From contig JAZSRB010000008.1 in NCBI GenBank assembly GCA_045538275.1, positions 15,750 through 79,749 on the forward strand: 64,000 bases of DNA. Direction: 5' to 3'. Under the pieces are notes generated by a model. It saw nothing but the letters and a program-made list of their open reading frames with translations. It ran no database searches and was not told the DNA's origin. Shown here piece after piece: positions 22,746-30,901 of this stretch (position 1 is the first letter of the stretch; each line of letters begins with the position of its first letter). The position numbers and the translations under genes are program-made. This DNA is from Akkermansia sp. (GTDB taxonomy: Bacteria; Verrucomicrobiota; Verrucomicrobiia; Verrucomicrobiales; Akkermansiaceae).

Positions 22746-22815
22746 TACAAGATAAAAAATCGCGCTGTAAAGGGACTACGTCCTCTACAGCGCGTTATTT
22801 TCAGTATATTTTGAG

Positions 22816-22889
22816 TTGCGGGAGCAGGATTTGAACCTGCGGCCTTCAGGTTATGAGCCTGACGAGCTACCTGGCTGCTCCATCCCGCG
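22816..22889 (-). tRNA. tRNA-Met(CAT), initiator type (fMet)
   Basis: CGCGGGATGGAGCAGCCAGGTAGCTCGTCAGGCTCATAACCTGAAGGCCGCAGGTTCAAATCCTGCTCCCGCAA. C1:A72 mismatch and CAT anticodon. CCA not encoded. Confidence 0.95.
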
Positions 22890-22969: not shown

Positions 22970-23647
22970 TTAATTTTTTCCTTTGGCTCGCCAATTCTGG
23001 GTCAGAATATCCACCGCAGTCTGGTTGCCGGCCTCAGCGGCATTGACGAGCCACCCCATCATCAGCTCCTCATTCTTAGGCACCCCCTTGCCCGTGGCGT
23101 AGCAAGTGCTGAGCATGAGGCAGGCCTCGCCGTCCCCCTGCATGGCAGCATAGCGCAGGTAGCGGATTCCCTCTGCCTCGCTGGCATTCTTGGCCGTACC
23201 ATTCAAATGCATGCGCGCCAGCATAAGCTGCGCTGGCACCGAATCATCATCGGCCATGCGTTCCAGCCATTTGAGAGCCCCCGGCAGATTCCCTGCCCGG
23301 GCCTCCATCTGCACCAGCGTGTGGCAAGCATCCTCATTTCCCGCGTCAACAGCCGCAGCATACCACTTTCGGGCCTTGGGAAGCGAGCGTTTCACCCCGA
23401 TACCGCGCTCATAGCAAAGCCCCATGGCCGCCATGGCACGGGGTTCACGGCTTTCTGCCGCCCTGGAAAACCAGCGGAAAGCGTGCTTGTACGAGCGGAT
23501 AGCCCCTTTCTGCCCGGTAAGCAGACGGCGGCCGTATTCATACTGAGCCACAGGATCCCCCGCCACGGCAGAGCGCCGAAGCTTGTAGATGCCGTGGCAA
23601 CTGGTCAACACCAGCAGCACCCCGGCTATGAGCCAGAGCTTTTTCAT
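22970..23647 (-). CDS. Sel1-repeat lipoprotein
   Basis: Lipobox LTSC and Sel1 repeats (AQYEYGRRLLTG, AMAAMGLCYERGIGV, ACLMLSTCYATGKGV). Confidence 0.9.
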   Translation of the reverse strand: MKKLWLIAGVLLVLTSCHGIYKLRRSAVAGDPVAQYEYGRRLLTGQKGAIRSYKHAFRWFSRAAESREPRAMAAMGLCYERGIGVKRSLPKARKWYAAAVDAGNEDACHTLVQMEARAGNLPGALKWLERMADDDSVPAQLMLARMHLNGTAKNASEAEGIRYLRYAAMQGDGEACLMLSTCYATGKGVPKNEELMMGWLVNAAEAGNQTAVDILTQNWRAKGKN

Positions 23648-24435
23648 CTGAAATAATTCTGTTGTTTCTCACTAATGGGCATTCCCAGGCGTTCCATAAC
23701 CGCCAGCATATCCTCCCACAGTGCGCGGCGGGCTGAGAGCGCCTCATTACGCAGCAGGTAACTGGGGTGGTAAGTCACACGTACCGGCACGCCCTGGCAT
23801 TCCAGCCATTGGCCGCGCAGCGCATTCACCCCCTGTTGAGTTCCCAGCAACCCCTTGGCCGAACTGCCACCCAGGCACACAATGCAGGCAGGCTGAATCG
23901 CACGGATTTCTGCCATGATAAGCGGGGCGCACGCCGCCAGCTCCTCCGGGCCGGGTGGTCGGTTGGCCGTGCCCTGGTTTTCCCCCATGGAGGGGCGGAA
24001 CTTACACACGTTGGAGATATACACATCCTCGCGCCGAAGCCCCATGGTTCCCAGAATCTTCGTAAGCAACTGCCCGGCAGGCCCCACAAAAGGCTCACCC
24101 TGGCGCTCTTCCTCATATCCGGGAGCTTCGCCCACCAGCATAAGCTTCGCGTGCGGATTCCCCACGGCAAACACCATGGTCTCGCGCAGCGTACCCAGCC
24201 GCCGGGCGGGTTTCCAGTCCGCAGCCTTGCGCCGCAGCACATCAAGCTTCTCCTCCACGCTCATTTCCGGCGCAACCGGGGGCGGCATTGAAACAGGAGC
24301 CGGGGTACCGCGCCTGGCCGCCAGCATCCACTCGCGCAGAATCCCGCGGGCATCATCATCCACCGCCAGACGCTGCTGCCCCCCTTCCACCATGTGAGTA
24401 AGAGATTCCACCGCAAGTTGCTTGAGCGTAGGCAT
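23644..24435 (-). CDS. udg: Uracil-DNA glycosylase, family 4
   Basis: LVGEAPG.EE..QG.PFVGPAG, YISNVCKFRP and TYHPSYLLR. Confidence 0.93.
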   Translation of the reverse strand: MPTLKQLAVESLTHMVEGGQQRLAVDDDARGILREWMLAARRGTPAPVSMPPPVAPEMSVEEKLDVLRRKAADWKPARRLGTLRETMVFAVGNPHAKLMLVGEAPGYEEERQGEPFVGPAGQLLTKILGTMGLRREDVYISNVCKFRPSMGENQGTANRPPGPEELAACAPLIMAEIRAIQPACIVCLGGSSAKGLLGTQQGVNALRGQWLECQGVPVRVTYHPSYLLRNEALSARRALWEDMLAVMERLGMPISEKQQNYFR

Positions 24436-24470: not shown

Positions 24471-24652
24471 GAATTTTGAATGTAGAATTGGGATTTTGAA
24501 TACATTGATTCCGGCAGACTGACGCCTGTGGAATAAGCGATATGCGAACTTGCAGCTCGCCCGGCTTAAGTTCGGAATATATGAAAATCTGCTATGCGCA
24601 GCGCAGGGAATTGTATACATTCTACATCCAGAATTCTACTCTCTACATTCAA
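24471..24652. repeat. Heptad-flanked intergenic element with 11-bp terminal inverted repeat
   Basis: TTGAATGTAGA (24476) / TCTACATTCAA (24642). GAATNNN heptads on the left, ATTCTAC heptads on the right, internal short hairpins. Confidence 0.55.
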
Positions 24653-24670
24653 CATAGACATATTGTCCGC

Positions 24671-24699
24671 TTGACGCCGAATTTCGCATCTGCTAGAAT
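24671..24699 (+). promoter_or_regulatory. Sigma70-type promoter of the methyltransferase (leaderless geometry)
   Basis: TTGACG-17-TAGAAT with extended TGn. ATG begins 8 nt after the end of the -10. Confidence 0.7.
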
Positions 24700-24706
24700 T
24701 CTGACA

Positions 24707-25816
24707 ATGAGCAGCCACCAGCCAACCGGGGAGGACCCGAGGTATCTACAGGAACAGATTATTACCTACCTGGGTAATAAACGGAGGCTGCTCGATTTCA
24801 TTGGCAAAGCCGTACTGCAGGTACGCGAGCGCATGGGGGGACGCAAGCTGCGTTGTTTCGATGCCTTTTCCGGCTCCGGCATCGTGAGCCGCTACCTGAA
24901 ACAACACGCAGAGCTTCTTTTCAGCAACGACCTGGAAAGCTACGCCCGCATACTCAACACCTGCTACCTGGCCAACCGCGACATCGTGAGCCAGGCCAAG
25001 CTGCCGGAATTGCATGCTCACCTGCTGCAGCAGATTGAGCAGAACCTGGCACCCGGTATGCTGGCGGCATACTACGCTCCACAGGATGATACCCACATCT
25101 GCCCCGGAGAAAGAGTCTTCTACACCCGGCGCAATGCCATCTATCTGGACACCGCCCGCCGCTGCATAGGAGCCATCCCGGAAGCAATGCAGCCATTTTT
25201 CCTGGCGCCGCTGCTCTGCGAAGCCTCCGTGCACACCAACACCGCCGGCATCTTCAAAGGCTTTTACAAAGACAAGAGCGGTATCGGCAAATTCGGCGGA
25301 CGGGGAGCCAACGCCCTGCAGCGCATTCTGGCCCCCATTGAACTCCCCCTGCCCATCTTCTCACGTTTCGATTGCGAGAACCATGTGCTGCAGAGTGATG
25401 CCACCGCCGCCGCCGCAACCCTGCCGGAACTTGACCTGGCCTATCTCGACCCGCCTTACAACCAGCACCCTTATGGTTCCAATTACTTCATGCTGAACCT
25501 CCTGCTTCAGAACAAAGAGCCTCAGCAAATCTCGCGCGTATCGGGCATACCGGCAGATTGGAACCGCTCACCCTACAACAAGCGTGCCCAAGTGCAGCAG
25601 GCGCTGGATAAATTGCTACATACCCTGCCCGCACGATTCATCCTCATTTCCTACAATTCAGAAGGCTTCATCCCCCTGCCGGAAATGCAGCAACTCCTCA
25701 GCAGACACGGCAAATTCCAGATCATGGAAACCGACTACGCCACCTTCCGCGGCTGCCGCAATCTGTGTGCACGCGCGCTCTCTGTCAAAGAATATCTTTT
25801 CCTGCTGGAAAAGTGA
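24707..25816 (+). CDS. N6-adenine DNA methyltransferase (D12/Dam-like class), orphan
   Basis: YLGNK..L, motif I DAFSGSG and motif IV YLDPPY. No adjacent endonuclease. Confidence 0.9.
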   Translation: MSSHQPTGEDPRYLQEQIITYLGNKRRLLDFIGKAVLQVRERMGGRKLRCFDAFSGSGIVSRYLKQHAELLFSNDLESYARILNTCYLANRDIVSQAKLPELHAHLLQQIEQNLAPGMLAAYYAPQDDTHICPGERVFYTRRNAIYLDTARRCIGAIPEAMQPFFLAPLLCEASVHTNTAGIFKGFYKDKSGIGKFGGRGANALQRILAPIELPLPIFSRFDCENHVLQSDATAAAATLPELDLAYLDPPYNQHPYGSNYFMLNLLLQNKEPQQISRVSGIPADWNRSPYNKRAQVQQALDKLLHTLPARFILISYNSEGFIPLPEMQQLLSRHGKFQIMETDYATFRGCRNLCARALSVKEYLFLLEK

Positions 25817-28395: not shown

Positions 28396-28517
28396 GCCGC
28401 CTACTTTACTCCTTTCCACTCCACTTGGCAAGGGCAGACTCAGTACCAGACATCATTTTCCGGACATGCACACAGGAAACACCTTGCAATGCAGCGGTAG
28501 TGTGTTATGATACAACC

Positions 28518-29915
28518 ATGAACCGCCTGCCGATTCCGCAATATGTGATGGCTCTGGCCCATGTGGCCGCCCTGCGCTCCGAAGACCCCTACCGCAAGGT
28601 GGGTGCCGCTGCGCTGGATAAGGACAACCGCGTGATCGGCACCGCCTACAACGGACTCTTCCCCGGATTCGACGCACCGGAGGGATTCTGGGCATCCCGC
28701 GATGAACGGCAGAAATACATGCTGCACGCCGAAATCAACCTCTGCAGCCTCTTCAAACGCGGCGAAGCGCGGATTGTGGCGTGCACCACCATGCCCTGCA
28801 CCTCGTGTATGCAGGCACTCTGCGCCCACGGAGTCAGGACCATCTACTATGGTGAAGACTACGCCGCCTCCCAGGCGCCGGCTATTGCCGCCATGTATGG
28901 GGTGGAGCTCATCAAAGTGGAGGACTACCCGCTTTCCACACGTTTCCCGCTGGTTGCCCCCAGGGTGGAATCCCCCGCCTGCAATTGCAGCAACGAAGAA
29001 GAAACCCTTCCGGTGGAAAGCCGGCTGCGCGGATGTTTCATGGGCCTTATGTGTGGTGATGCCCTTGGCGCACCGGTAGAATTCCATAGTCCCAGCGATG
29101 TATGTTCCCTGTACCCGGATGGTATCTCGGGCATGGTAGACGGGTGGGGCTGCACAGATGAACGCCGCAGCGGTGAAATCACCGATGATTCCGAAATGGC
29201 CATTGCCCTGCTCCGCAGTCTGCTCAACGAGCAGGGATTCAACTCCCTGGCCATCCAGTCGCAGTATATCGACTGGCTCTCCACCGACCCGGATGACGTG
29301 GGCGGCACCATACGCAGCTCTCTGAACGGCAAGTTCAATGCCGATTCACAAGCCAACGGGGCGCTCATGCGCGTAGCTCCCCTGGCCCTCTATGCCACCC
29401 TGCACCCGGAATGGGACTGGGAAACCGCCGCCATCAAGGAATGCAAGCACACCCACATCAACCCGCGCTGCATTCATGCCAACGTCATCTACGTTGAATC
29501 CCTCATCCTCGCGCTGCAAGGCTACACCCCGCAGCAGATATACACCACAGCCTGCAACCGCGCCCAGGAGCTCGATGACGTGCAGCTTCTCAGCCGTCTG
29601 CGTGCGGCAGAATACGAAGAACCCGAATATTACCCCCAGGCAGGCTGGGTGGAAATTGCTTTCCAATGCGCCTACTACTGGCTGCTGCACGCCACCGATT
29701 ACCCCTCGGCCATGTGCCGCATCGTGAATCGCTGCGGAGACCCCGATACCAACGCCGCCATAGCCGGAGCGCTGCTGGGGGCAATCTATGGCGACTGCGG
29801 CATCCCCCGCGAATGGCAGAATGAAGTACTCTGCTGCCGCTGCGAACGGCCCATGCGCTACCGCGCCGCCCAGGGCATGCAACTGCTGGAGGAGCTCATC
29901 GTCCAAGCCCAATGA
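28518..29915 (+). CDS. Fusion of dCMP deaminase-like domain and ADP-ribosylglycohydrolase
   Basis: N-terminal RS.D....VGA, AYNG, HAE..., PCTSC (Zn-deaminase). C-terminal GDALG, TDDSEM, NGALMR and GDPDTNAAIAGALLGA (ARH/DraG family). Single open frame. Confidence 0.88.
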   Translation: MNRLPIPQYVMALAHVAALRSEDPYRKVGAAALDKDNRVIGTAYNGLFPGFDAPEGFWASRDERQKYMLHAEINLCSLFKRGEARIVACTTMPCTSCMQALCAHGVRTIYYGEDYAASQAPAIAAMYGVELIKVEDYPLSTRFPLVAPRVESPACNCSNEEETLPVESRLRGCFMGLMCGDALGAPVEFHSPSDVCSLYPDGISGMVDGWGCTDERRSGEITDDSEMAIALLRSLLNEQGFNSLAIQSQYIDWLSTDPDDVGGTIRSSLNGKFNADSQANGALMRVAPLALYATLHPEWDWETAAIKECKHTHINPRCIHANVIYVESLILALQGYTPQQIYTTACNRAQELDDVQLLSRLRAAEYEEPEYYPQAGWVEIAFQCAYYWLLHATDYPSAMCRIVNRCGDPDTNAAIAGALLGAIYGDCGIPREWQNEVLCCRCERPMRYRAAQGMQLLEELIVQAQ

Positions 29916-30901
29916 GTGCTCCCCTGCTCCAGGTCCGCGACCTCACGGTCGAGTTTCACTCCCGCGCCGGGGTAAACTACGCCGTCAACGGCGTTTCCTT
30001 TGACCTGAACGCCGGCGAAACCCTCGGCATTGTCGGCGAATCCGGCTCCGGCAAATCCGCCACCTCCTCCACCCTCATGGGACTGCTGCCCAGCCCGCCG
30101 GCCCGCATCGGCCAGGATTCCCGCGCCTGGTTCGACGGCATCGACCTGCTGCACGCCCCGGAAAAAGTGCACGCCACCCTGCGCGGGCGGCGCATCTCCA
30201 TGATTTTCCAGGACCCCATGACCTGCCTGAATCCCTGCATGTGCATCGGCGACCAGGTGGCGGAGCCACTCGTGCTGCACCAGGGGCTCAGCTGGCGCGA
30301 AGCCCGCCGCCTCGCAGTGGAAGAACTGGCCCGCACCGGCATACCCGAGCCGGAAAAACGCGCCCTGGCCTATCCGCACGAATTCTCCGGCGGCATGCGC
30401 CAGCGCGTGATGATAGCCATGGCACTCATCACCCGCCCGCAAATCCTCATTGCCGATGAACCCACCACCGCGCTCGATGTGACCGTGCAGAAACAGGTGC
30501 TCGACCTCCTCCGCACCCGCCAGCAGGAACTGGGCACCGCCATCATCCTCATCACTCACGACCTCGGCGTGGTGCGGCAATACGCCCACCGCATCCAGGT
30601 CATGTATGCCGGCAGCATTGTGGAAAGCGCACCGGCCGAAGAACTTATCCGCCACCCGCGGCATGCCTACACCCGCTCCCTCATGGCCTCCATTCCCGGC
30701 GCGGCAGACAAAGGCAGCCGCCTGCAGACCATCCCCGGTCTGCCCCCCACCCTGCGCGAGCCCGTGAGCGGCTGCGCCTTCCGCCCCCGCAACACCCTGG
30801 GCAACCCCGCCCTCTGCCTCACCGACCGCATCCCTGAGCTCGTGGAAATCACCCCCGGCCACTGGGTGCGCAACTGCCCCGGCTGCATGGCATCCGCATA
30901 A
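29912..30901 (+). CDS. Oligopeptide/dipeptide ABC transporter ATP-binding subunit (OppD/DppD-like)
   Basis: GESGSGKS, FQDPMT.LNP, FSGGMRQRVMIA, DEPTTALD, HPRH.YT and a Cys-containing C-terminus. Confidence 0.93.
   Translation: MSAPLLQVRDLTVEFHSRAGVNYAVNGVSFDLNAGETLGIVGESGSGKSATSSTLMGLLPSPPARIGQDSRAWFDGIDLLHAPEKVHATLRGRRISMIFQDPMTCLNPCMCIGDQVAEPLVLHQGLSWREARRLAVEELARTGIPEPEKRALAYPHEFSGGMRQRVMIAMALITRPQILIADEPTTALDVTVQKQVLDLLRTRQQELGTAIILITHDLGVVRQYAHRIQVMYAGSIVESAPAEELIRHPRHAYTRSLMASIPGAADKGSRLQTIPGLPPTLREPVSGCAFRPRNTLGNPALCLTDRIPELVEITPGHWVRNCPGCMASA

Follow-up and report, generated by a model that had tools for sequence, protein, structure and literature searches.

Deaminases of the dCMP type (ComEB/DCTD) turn dCMP into dUMP under allosteric control by dCTP and dTTP; they carry a HAE...PCxxC zinc site with the loop YNG...W..R..KY..HAE.N before the catalytic motif and have a single-copy housekeeping role beside ThyA, and cytidine deaminase (CDA)-fold domains acting on deoxycytidine nucleotides are also found in anti-phage dCTP deaminases (NF041025; PADLOC dCTPase). 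Among the ADP-ribosylhydrolases (ARHs), the DraG proteins (TIGR02662; 2woc, 3g9d) combine a compact all-helical fold with the metal ligands E/TDD/DxDT, while ARH-type immunity proteins (NF041672 'ADP-ribosylarginine hydrolase Tri1'; 6dre; Listeria Lmo0067, 8za7) undo the modification made by a foreign ADP-ribosyltransferase (ART). A further group, the ARG-centred systems (Iyer, Burroughs, Aravind; PMC9503650, section 3.8, 2022), with partners that include phosphatases, NADAR and WYL domains, has been predicted to counter viral ADP-ribosylation. Here we describe a gene of Akkermansia sp. in which a dCMP deaminase domain and a DraG-like ARH domain are encoded in one reading frame; it lies in a stretch of 64,000 nucleotides (contig JAZSRB010000008.1 of assembly GCA_045538275.1), hereafter called the window. 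The best explanation as a whole, to which we give a little better than an even chance, is a bifunctional protein that unites a housekeeping dCMP deaminase with an ARH removing foreign ADP-ribose. Both halves come from well-known enzyme families, so that no new chemistry is implied.

The fused gene occupies positions 28518..29915 of the forward strand (465 codons plus stop; ATG at 28518, stop at 29913-29915); a longer frame with a TTG start at 28425 is not used by the relatives, whose homologues begin MNRLPIPQY or MSRLSIPEY. Residues 1-146 (28518..28955, forward strand) form the dCMP-deaminase domain. Within it, residues 8-112 match Pfam dCMP_cyt_deam_1 (PF00383) with 53.2 bits against a cut-off of 25, and direct reading of the sequence finds H70-A71-E72 (28725-28733) and P93-C94-T-S-C97 (PCTSC, 28794-28808), so that both the score above the gathering cut-off and the two motifs place the domain in the CMP/dCMP deaminase zinc-binding family. 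A linker of residues 147-165 (28956..29012, forward strand), delimited by comparison of fused, stand-alone and split linkers and by structure prediction, leads to the DraG-like ARH domain of residues 166-465 (29013..29912, forward strand; Pfam PF03747, alignment, AlphaFold2 and Foldseek). Here residues 172-432 cover the whole ADP_ribosyl_GH profile (PF03747, positions 1-287) with 182 bits against a cut-off of 26. The metal and catalytic residues E188 (29079-29081), T222-D223-D224 (29181-29189), D260 (29295-29297), T312-H313 (29451-29456) and D408-P-D410-T411 (DPDT, 29739-29750), all on the forward strand, vary little or not at all among 80 aligned relatives, both fused and stand-alone, and D260 aligns with the catalytic D97 of DraG. 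The full-length profile match, the binuclear-metal ligands and the TH motif thus assign this half to the ADP-ribosylglycohydrolase family. A preliminary description of the window, made by reading its letters, had reported a single open reading frame with an intact zinc deaminase (HAE...PCxxC) followed by an ARH/DraG domain with TDD and D.DT motifs, and the Pfam matches and motifs bear this out: the gene holds two catalytic modules with intact motifs, from which we infer the two enzyme activities.

In the AlphaFold2 model the ARH domain reaches predicted local distance difference test (pLDDT) values of 95-99, the deaminase fold is recognisable at 55-88 from a shallower alignment, and linker residues 149-160 stay below 50 (disordered); the predicted template modelling score (pTM) of 0.67 for the whole protein would fit two domains on a flexible tether. 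Both the length and the sequence of the linker are hypervariable; the Cys-rich CxC motif in it derives from the C-terminal tail of the stand-alone deaminase (YPL..FPLV...CxC), which persists in the fusion. As the linker keeps this tail, the ARH coding region lies in frame between the tail and the start of the following gene, which encodes an OppD-like ATPase. In a Foldseek comparison with the PDB, DraG (2woc/2woe) ranked at the top with target template modelling (TM) scores of 0.85-0.87, followed by the Listeria ART-ARH immunity protein 8za7, MJ1187, a Thermus ARH-like protein and the toxin/immunity pair 6dre. Apart from DraG, the closest structures with a stated role are therefore ART-toxin immunity proteins (8za7, 6dre).

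At 90% identity, proteins from NCBI, ENA and Logan assemblies form 35 clusters in which a single chain of 461-474 aa bears both domains, with the reading frame maintained despite indels in the linker. In a genus census of 154 species representatives we found 30 intact full-length fusions, two that are fragmented at contig ends and two cases of adjacent but separate genes; the fusion is stably kept in about one fifth of Akkermansia species. The closest relative is an Akkermansia sp. metagenome-assembled genome (MAG) from sheep rectum, with 100% identity in the ARH domain and 98.9% over the whole 465-aa fusion, and MAGs from the hindgut of buffalo, cattle and sheep come next. The fusion is genuine, conserved and lineage-specific to animal-gut Akkermansia. 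When proteins of 256-814 aa were searched for the deaminase domain, the matches were the 35 fused clusters plus four proteins that have the deaminase alone behind additional N-terminal residues (over-extended gene calls in at least two cases); no other fusion partner of the deaminase was among them. No similar fusion elsewhere appeared among the best 150 matches of an exhaustive, profile-free search of 1.84 billion representatives, and no fused form was present in GenBank phages or IMG/VR. A phage origin was considered and rejected: the best viral ARH is 41% identical, and no viral ARH is fused to a deaminase. The preliminary description had not recognised the architecture, which is indeed unusual. 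In our literature search we found no paper that mentions a deaminase-ARH fusion or deals with Akkermansia ARHs, and the word 'deaminase' occurs 0 times in PMC9503650; the combination is apparently undescribed.

The window's genome (2.1 Mb in 43 contigs, 98% complete) contains three CDA-fold genes, namely TadA (153 bits, cut-off 150), RibD (252 bits, cut-off 156) and the fusion, which is its sole dCMP/dCTP-type deaminase; dcd (dCTP deaminase) is absent from this genome and ThyA is present. A stand-alone deaminase orthologue of ~150 aa is found as a single copy in 116 of the 121 Akkermansiaceae genomes, with 65-89% identity to fusion residues 2-140 (65-92% across the family and genus sets), and the orthologue is present in 153 of the 154 Akkermansia species representatives. 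Among the fused genes the deaminase part shows a ratio of nonsynonymous to synonymous substitution rates (dN/dS) of 0.01-0.06, indicative of very strong purifying selection. The solved relatives that match the domain (human 2w4l, 7fh4, 2hvv, 4p9c, 1vq2) are all dCMP deaminases. On the strength of the family- and genus-wide orthologue, the single deaminase of this type, the missing dcd, the presence of ThyA and the low dN/dS, the N-terminal half is, as judged from sequence, a vertically inherited housekeeping dCMP deaminase predicted to supply dUMP, and not an island-borne defence deaminase. It shares the zinc site, the preceding loop and the single-copy setting with the ComEB/DCTD enzymes, yet it is divergent from them (43-47 bits against the 219 of the ComEB equivalog TIGR02571), has a Cys-rich C-terminal tail and bears a 300-aa ARH. 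The likeness to anti-phage dCTP deaminases is confined to the core: NF041025 is matched with 44-49 bits against 400, the PADLOC dCTPase model with 55 bits in two short stretches of its 630 positions (the best at protein residues 9-45), and the deaminase begins at residue 1 without an N-terminal kinase-like domain.

The ARH half evolves faster. Across the fused proteins the deaminase domain is 87-100% identical and the ARH domain 48-99%; the ARH exceeds the deaminase and OppD in dN by a factor of 4-10 at comparable dS, and its dN/dS of 0.08-0.3 indicates purifying selection, all of these ratios being approximate because many dS values are near saturation. In the comparison of L033/L034 with L036 (our locus labels), dS forms a mosaic of 0.26-0.30 in the ARH, 1.0-1.1 in the deaminase and 0.53-0.67 in OppD, which is moderate evidence that the ARH segment has been exchanged, given that the deaminase part is short and several of the dS values are close to saturation. 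ARH homologues occur in 88 of the 154 species with 1-5 copies each and are absent from 66 (43%); some are arranged in tandem and some fused to ankyrin repeats, and none is found in the large complete genomes of Akkermansia. Genus-wide, the non-muciniphila Akkermansia show an expanded ARH family that includes tandem pairs and ankyrin-ARH fusions flanked by more ankyrin proteins (for example at locus L057).

The ARH tree places stand-alone ARHs as the sister group of the main fused clade. Of the sister-clade members whose surroundings were read, those of four species occupy the third position in a type III mod-res-ARH operon, and that of genome G149 lies elsewhere; the genes of the operon overlap by 4 nt, and a conserved AsnC/NirD-like housekeeping gene adjoins the insertion (loci L006, L051, L052 and L053; genomes G195, G141 and G171). 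An ARH as an accessory gene of a restriction-modification (R-M) system appears to be undescribed. Another group of stand-alone ARHs is located after recA-sprT: in one other Akkermansia-like genome (L055) a stand-alone ARH of 55% identity lies directly downstream of recA and a gene for a SprT-like protease. In the window's genome recA and sprT are adjacent as well, and the sole ARH found is the fusion, which lies on another contig (C14). Relatives of ~40% identity are often fused to IMPase-family or DSP-type phosphatases, NADAR, WYL or SIR2-like domains. The ARH half belongs to an accessory, conflict-like family. Thus, the proposal in the preliminary description that two housekeeping genes had been joined holds for the deaminase only, as the ARH is accessory and missing from 66 of the 154 species.

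The ARH half can be compared with several described counterparts. With DraG it shares the fold, the metal ligands and the D97-equivalent Asp; it differs in its score on the DraG equivalog TIGR02662 (131 bits against 337), in the lack of a DraT in the genome, in its fusion to a deaminase and in its membership of a multi-copy accessory family. The ARH-type immunity proteins are among the nearest structures, and the mode proposed here, an orphan hydrolase without a cognate ART, is comparable to theirs, but the Tri1-type model NF041672 is matched with only 75 bits against 490, no ART toxin gene is adjacent and there is no evidence of toxin binding. The ARG-centred systems of PMC9503650 come close in several respects: a Pfam scan of the genes on either side of the fusion found no ART or sirtuin domain, the ARH relatives are fused to phosphatases, NADAR and WYL, and the family evolves fast with gain and loss between close genomes. 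In contrast to those systems, the locus has no neighbouring Nudix/WYL regulator, phosphatase, chaperone or nuclease, such partners being seen only in the ~40%-identical relatives, and the partner here is a housekeeping deaminase.

A single clade of all fused ARHs was rejected (AU p = 0.0002, for a group named after the first tree had been seen). The outlying fused ARH, P0036, groups with P0100 and P0101 at 100/99 support, and P0101 and P0068 are encoded by genes of their own, each read in a different frame from a deaminase gene (188-200 aa) whose 3' end it overlaps; they have the synteny of P0036 and were seen on many independent contigs. In the P0036 lineage the two halves alternate between a single reading frame and a pair of overlapping genes, and the changes fall within the hypervariable linker. 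The preliminary description had reasoned that separate adjacent genes in close relatives would mark the fusion as a read-through artefact. Such genes do exist in a sister lineage, and they point to fusion and fission of a persistent gene pair instead of an artefact. In that sister lineage (L040-L043, L056, G225, G122) the split genes overlap by 29-56 nt and the deaminase has a long low-complexity tail. An independent origin of all fused forms was considered and is unproven, since P0036 groups with split, deaminase-adjacent genes of the same synteny, indicating fusion plus fission; deaminase and ARH may have become linked one to three times.

Two genomes without the ARH, G127 and G191, have the exact synteny of the window (M42 peptidase, deaminase, OppD), with a deaminase of 164-165 aa. 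They group together (93/97) in an OppD tree that is star-like and without an outgroup, and the tail of their deaminase resembles the linker of one fused subclade; sequence comparison hints that these genomes may have lost the ARH. Three ARH lineages, diverged from one another to 48-53% identity, have retained the link to the deaminase, either as a fusion or as neighbouring genes. Such retention while the ARH itself diverges to ~50% identity is a Rosetta-stone hint that would put an ADP-ribosylhydrolase beside dNTP or DNA metabolism.

Upstream of the gene, a consensus scan finds a promoter-like site at 28484..28511 (forward strand) with the -35 box TTGCAA, a 16-nt spacer and the extended -10 element TGTTATGAT, in which a TG precedes the -10 box (TTGCAA-16-TATGAT). 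The ATG sits 6 nt past the -10 element, so that the transcript from this site is probably leaderless. In 10 relatives, the ARH-less G127 and G191 among them, the block AAACACCTTGCAA...TAT(G/C)ATACA..CATG is kept 5' of the gene and is constant even though the upstream genes vary between M42 peptidase, Ser/Thr kinase with Sel1 repeats, autotransporter and integrase. A variable insertion spot is located just upstream of the conserved deaminase promoter (28484 in the window; L013, L037, L039 and L036), and its occupants comprise the M42 peptidase of the window, a phage-type integrase (L013), a 627-aa Ser/Thr kinase with Sel1 repeats (L037) and a 904-aa autotransporter (L039).

Downstream, the gene for the OppD-like ABC ATPase (29912..30901, forward strand; Pfam ABC_tran and oligo_HPY, with the NCBIfam OppD subfamily below its cut-off) starts with an ATG that overlaps the stop of the fusion (ATGA). 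This overlap is conserved among the relatives and also follows the ARH-less deaminase in G127 and G191. A promoter of the form TTGCAA-16-TGnTATGAT and the ATGA coupling had both been listed in the preliminary description as features of the fusion. Both are present and conserved; because the ARH-less relatives share them, they belong to the ancestral deaminase gene and predate the ARH, and we rejected them as traits of the fusion. No permease or binding-protein genes adjoin the OppD-like gene, which is followed by a catalase gene, and as far as shown the ATPase is a neighbour and not a part of the fusion's function. A paralogue of 43% identity is encoded on contig C34, a few kb from thyA.

According to the explanation that we favour, the N-terminal module would work as an ordinary, probably essential-type dCMP deaminase that converts dCMP to dUMP, with ammonia released by a zinc-activated water, and its dUMP would feed ThyA. 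The C-terminal module is predicted to be a catalytically complete, DraG-like mono-ADP-ribosyl hydrolase whose binuclear metal site would cleave the glycosidic bond at C1'' of ADP-ribose. As the ARH region lies in frame between the deaminase tail and the OppD start, it would be expressed from the deaminase's own conserved, leaderless promoter and be tethered by a flexible linker, so that the fusion would provide the ARH with constitutive expression and possibly with proximity to DNA-precursor or DNA metabolism. The ARH would strip off ADP-ribose that foreign enzymes, such as phage ARTs or competitor toxin ARTs, have put on cellular targets, and would thus represent an orphan repair or immunity activity. 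Since no ADP-ribosyltransferase is linked to the gene, marks set by foreign ARTs are most likely what it acts on; its substrate and any functional coupling of the two halves are what we infer from this picture. The protein resembles a housekeeping enzyme to which an accessory module has been added, and not a new defence machine. The preliminary description had envisaged a defence or counter-toxin enzyme that changes the dNTP pool: a counter-toxin or counter-phage role of the ARH is plausible given its conflict-like family, and it is the dNTP-changing part of the proposal that finds no support.

Several observations weigh against this explanation. The case for the foreign-ART role is built on genomic context and on analogy, and the phosphatase-fused relatives could equally well indicate small-molecule ADP-ribose derivatives as substrates. 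DraT and DarT were not found in the window's genome, with the search limited to these two ART families and with no positive among the control genomes. The selection estimates are approximate for the reason given above, and the locus itself, with M42 peptidase, OppD, catalase and IspG as neighbours, is no defence island. Moreover, the persistence of the linkage across ARHs of ~50% identity hints at a functional coupling that the favoured explanation leaves unspecified.

Such a coupling is at the centre of an alternative that we regard as possible though clearly the less probable, in which the linkage is selected and not incidental, and the ARH acts within the sphere of the deaminase, be it on a guarded enzyme or through a link to DNA. 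Its targets could be the deaminase itself, other proteins of dNTP synthesis or DNA handling, or ADP-ribosylated DNA or nucleotides. Besides the retention over the three ARH lineages, this is favoured by the other mapped contexts of the close solo ARHs, which are DNA-related (the type III R-M operon and the position downstream of recA-sprT), although each of these contexts may reflect one historical event. Furthermore, the ARH is missing in some genomes whose deaminase locus is otherwise unchanged, many solo copies lie elsewhere, the disordered linker and the pTM in the AlphaFold2 model would not point to a fixed interface, and the subfamily has no characterised DNA- or nucleotide-directed ARH. 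The idea of a cis-acting 'guard' that shields DNA-precursor or DNA metabolism from ADP-ribosylating attack is accordingly a tentative one; if true, it would point to a so far unrecognised conflict based on ADP-ribosylation in animal-gut Akkermansia, to which the expanded family with its R-M-linked, ankyrin-fused and tandem ARHs would correspond. Rather doubtful is a metabolic ARH that hydrolyses a soluble ADP-ribose derivative (O-acyl-ADP-ribose, phospho-ADP-ribose or an ADP-ribosylated nucleotide) in NAD or nucleotide salvage, so that the fusion would join two steps of nucleotide metabolism. The partner is indeed a nucleotide enzyme, and the very frequent fusion of the ~40%-identical relatives to IMPase-family or DSP-type phosphatases and to NADAR suggests small phosphorylated ribosyl compounds. 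However, one would not expect a core salvage enzyme to belong to a family that is patchy, multi-copy, fast-evolving and R-M-linked; DraG and the immunity proteins, the nearest structures with a characterised function, have proteins as their substrates; and PMC9503650 argues that ARG domains prefer macromolecular adducts.

The remaining alternatives are far less probable. A defence effector, in which the ARH would sense or process ADP-ribose signals and switch the deaminase to deplete dCTP/dCMP during phage infection, could draw on the known CDA-fold deaminases of dCTP-depletion defence and on the weak similarity to NF041025 (44-49 bits) and PADLOC dCTPase (55 bits). These scores remain far under the 400-bit cut-off and there is no kinase-like N-domain; the deaminase is a single-copy, vertically inherited housekeeping orthologue with a dN/dS of ~0.03 and the same promoter as in ARH-less relatives, and the ARH site is fully catalytic and not that of a degenerate sensor. 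A dNTP-depleting role in defence is therefore unlikely, contrary to the preliminary description, and the complete effector scheme is very improbable. We give just as little credence to an endogenous cycle of the DraT/DraG kind, in which the fused ARH would undo a modification that a host ART sets on a host protein, perhaps on the deaminase. DraG is the best match in both sequence and structure and the D97 equivalent is conserved, but the score lies far below that of the DraG equivalog, neither a DraT in the genome nor an ART nearby was found, and the ARH is absent from 43% of the species of the genus, whereas the deaminase is universal. Least credible of all is an artefact of assembly or of a frameshift, or else a chance fusion in decay whose ARH is no longer functional. 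It might be suspected from the 43-contig assembly, which is close to sheep-gut Akkermansia MAGs, and from the split versions in relatives; the identical in-frame architecture in 30 species representatives and 35 clusters from many independent assemblies, the purifying selection on the ARH and its invariant catalytic residues led us to reject it.

The fusion may be a passenger arrangement; if the ARH merely rides on a constitutively expressed gene, this is a case of ordinary modular gene fusion. The wider finding may matter more, namely that non-muciniphila Akkermansia carry expanded, fast-evolving ARHs without known ARTs, including the mod-res-ARH operon. The Akkermansia ARHs offer a cheap and concrete test case for the published prediction that orphan ARHs undo ADP-ribosylation by phages or competitors.

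Upstream of the fused gene, the window encodes at 23644-24435 (reverse strand) a protein of the uracil-DNA glycosylase superfamily with 263 aa and an N-terminal extension of ~85 aa, and in genome G101 a uracil-DNA glycosylase gene also lies ~4 kb upstream of the fused gene. The ankyrin and coiled-coil genes found upstream in the clade of G101 were considered as possible partners in a system with the fusion, but just weak ankyrin matches were seen elsewhere in the window's genome. A D12-class N6-adenine DNA methyltransferase, which matches the PADLOC type II methyltransferase model with 373 bits, is encoded at 24542-25816; no restriction gene was noticed beside it, and its synteny with coiled-coil and hypothetical genes is kept in L037 and L046. 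A tRNA-Met gene is located at 22815-22889.

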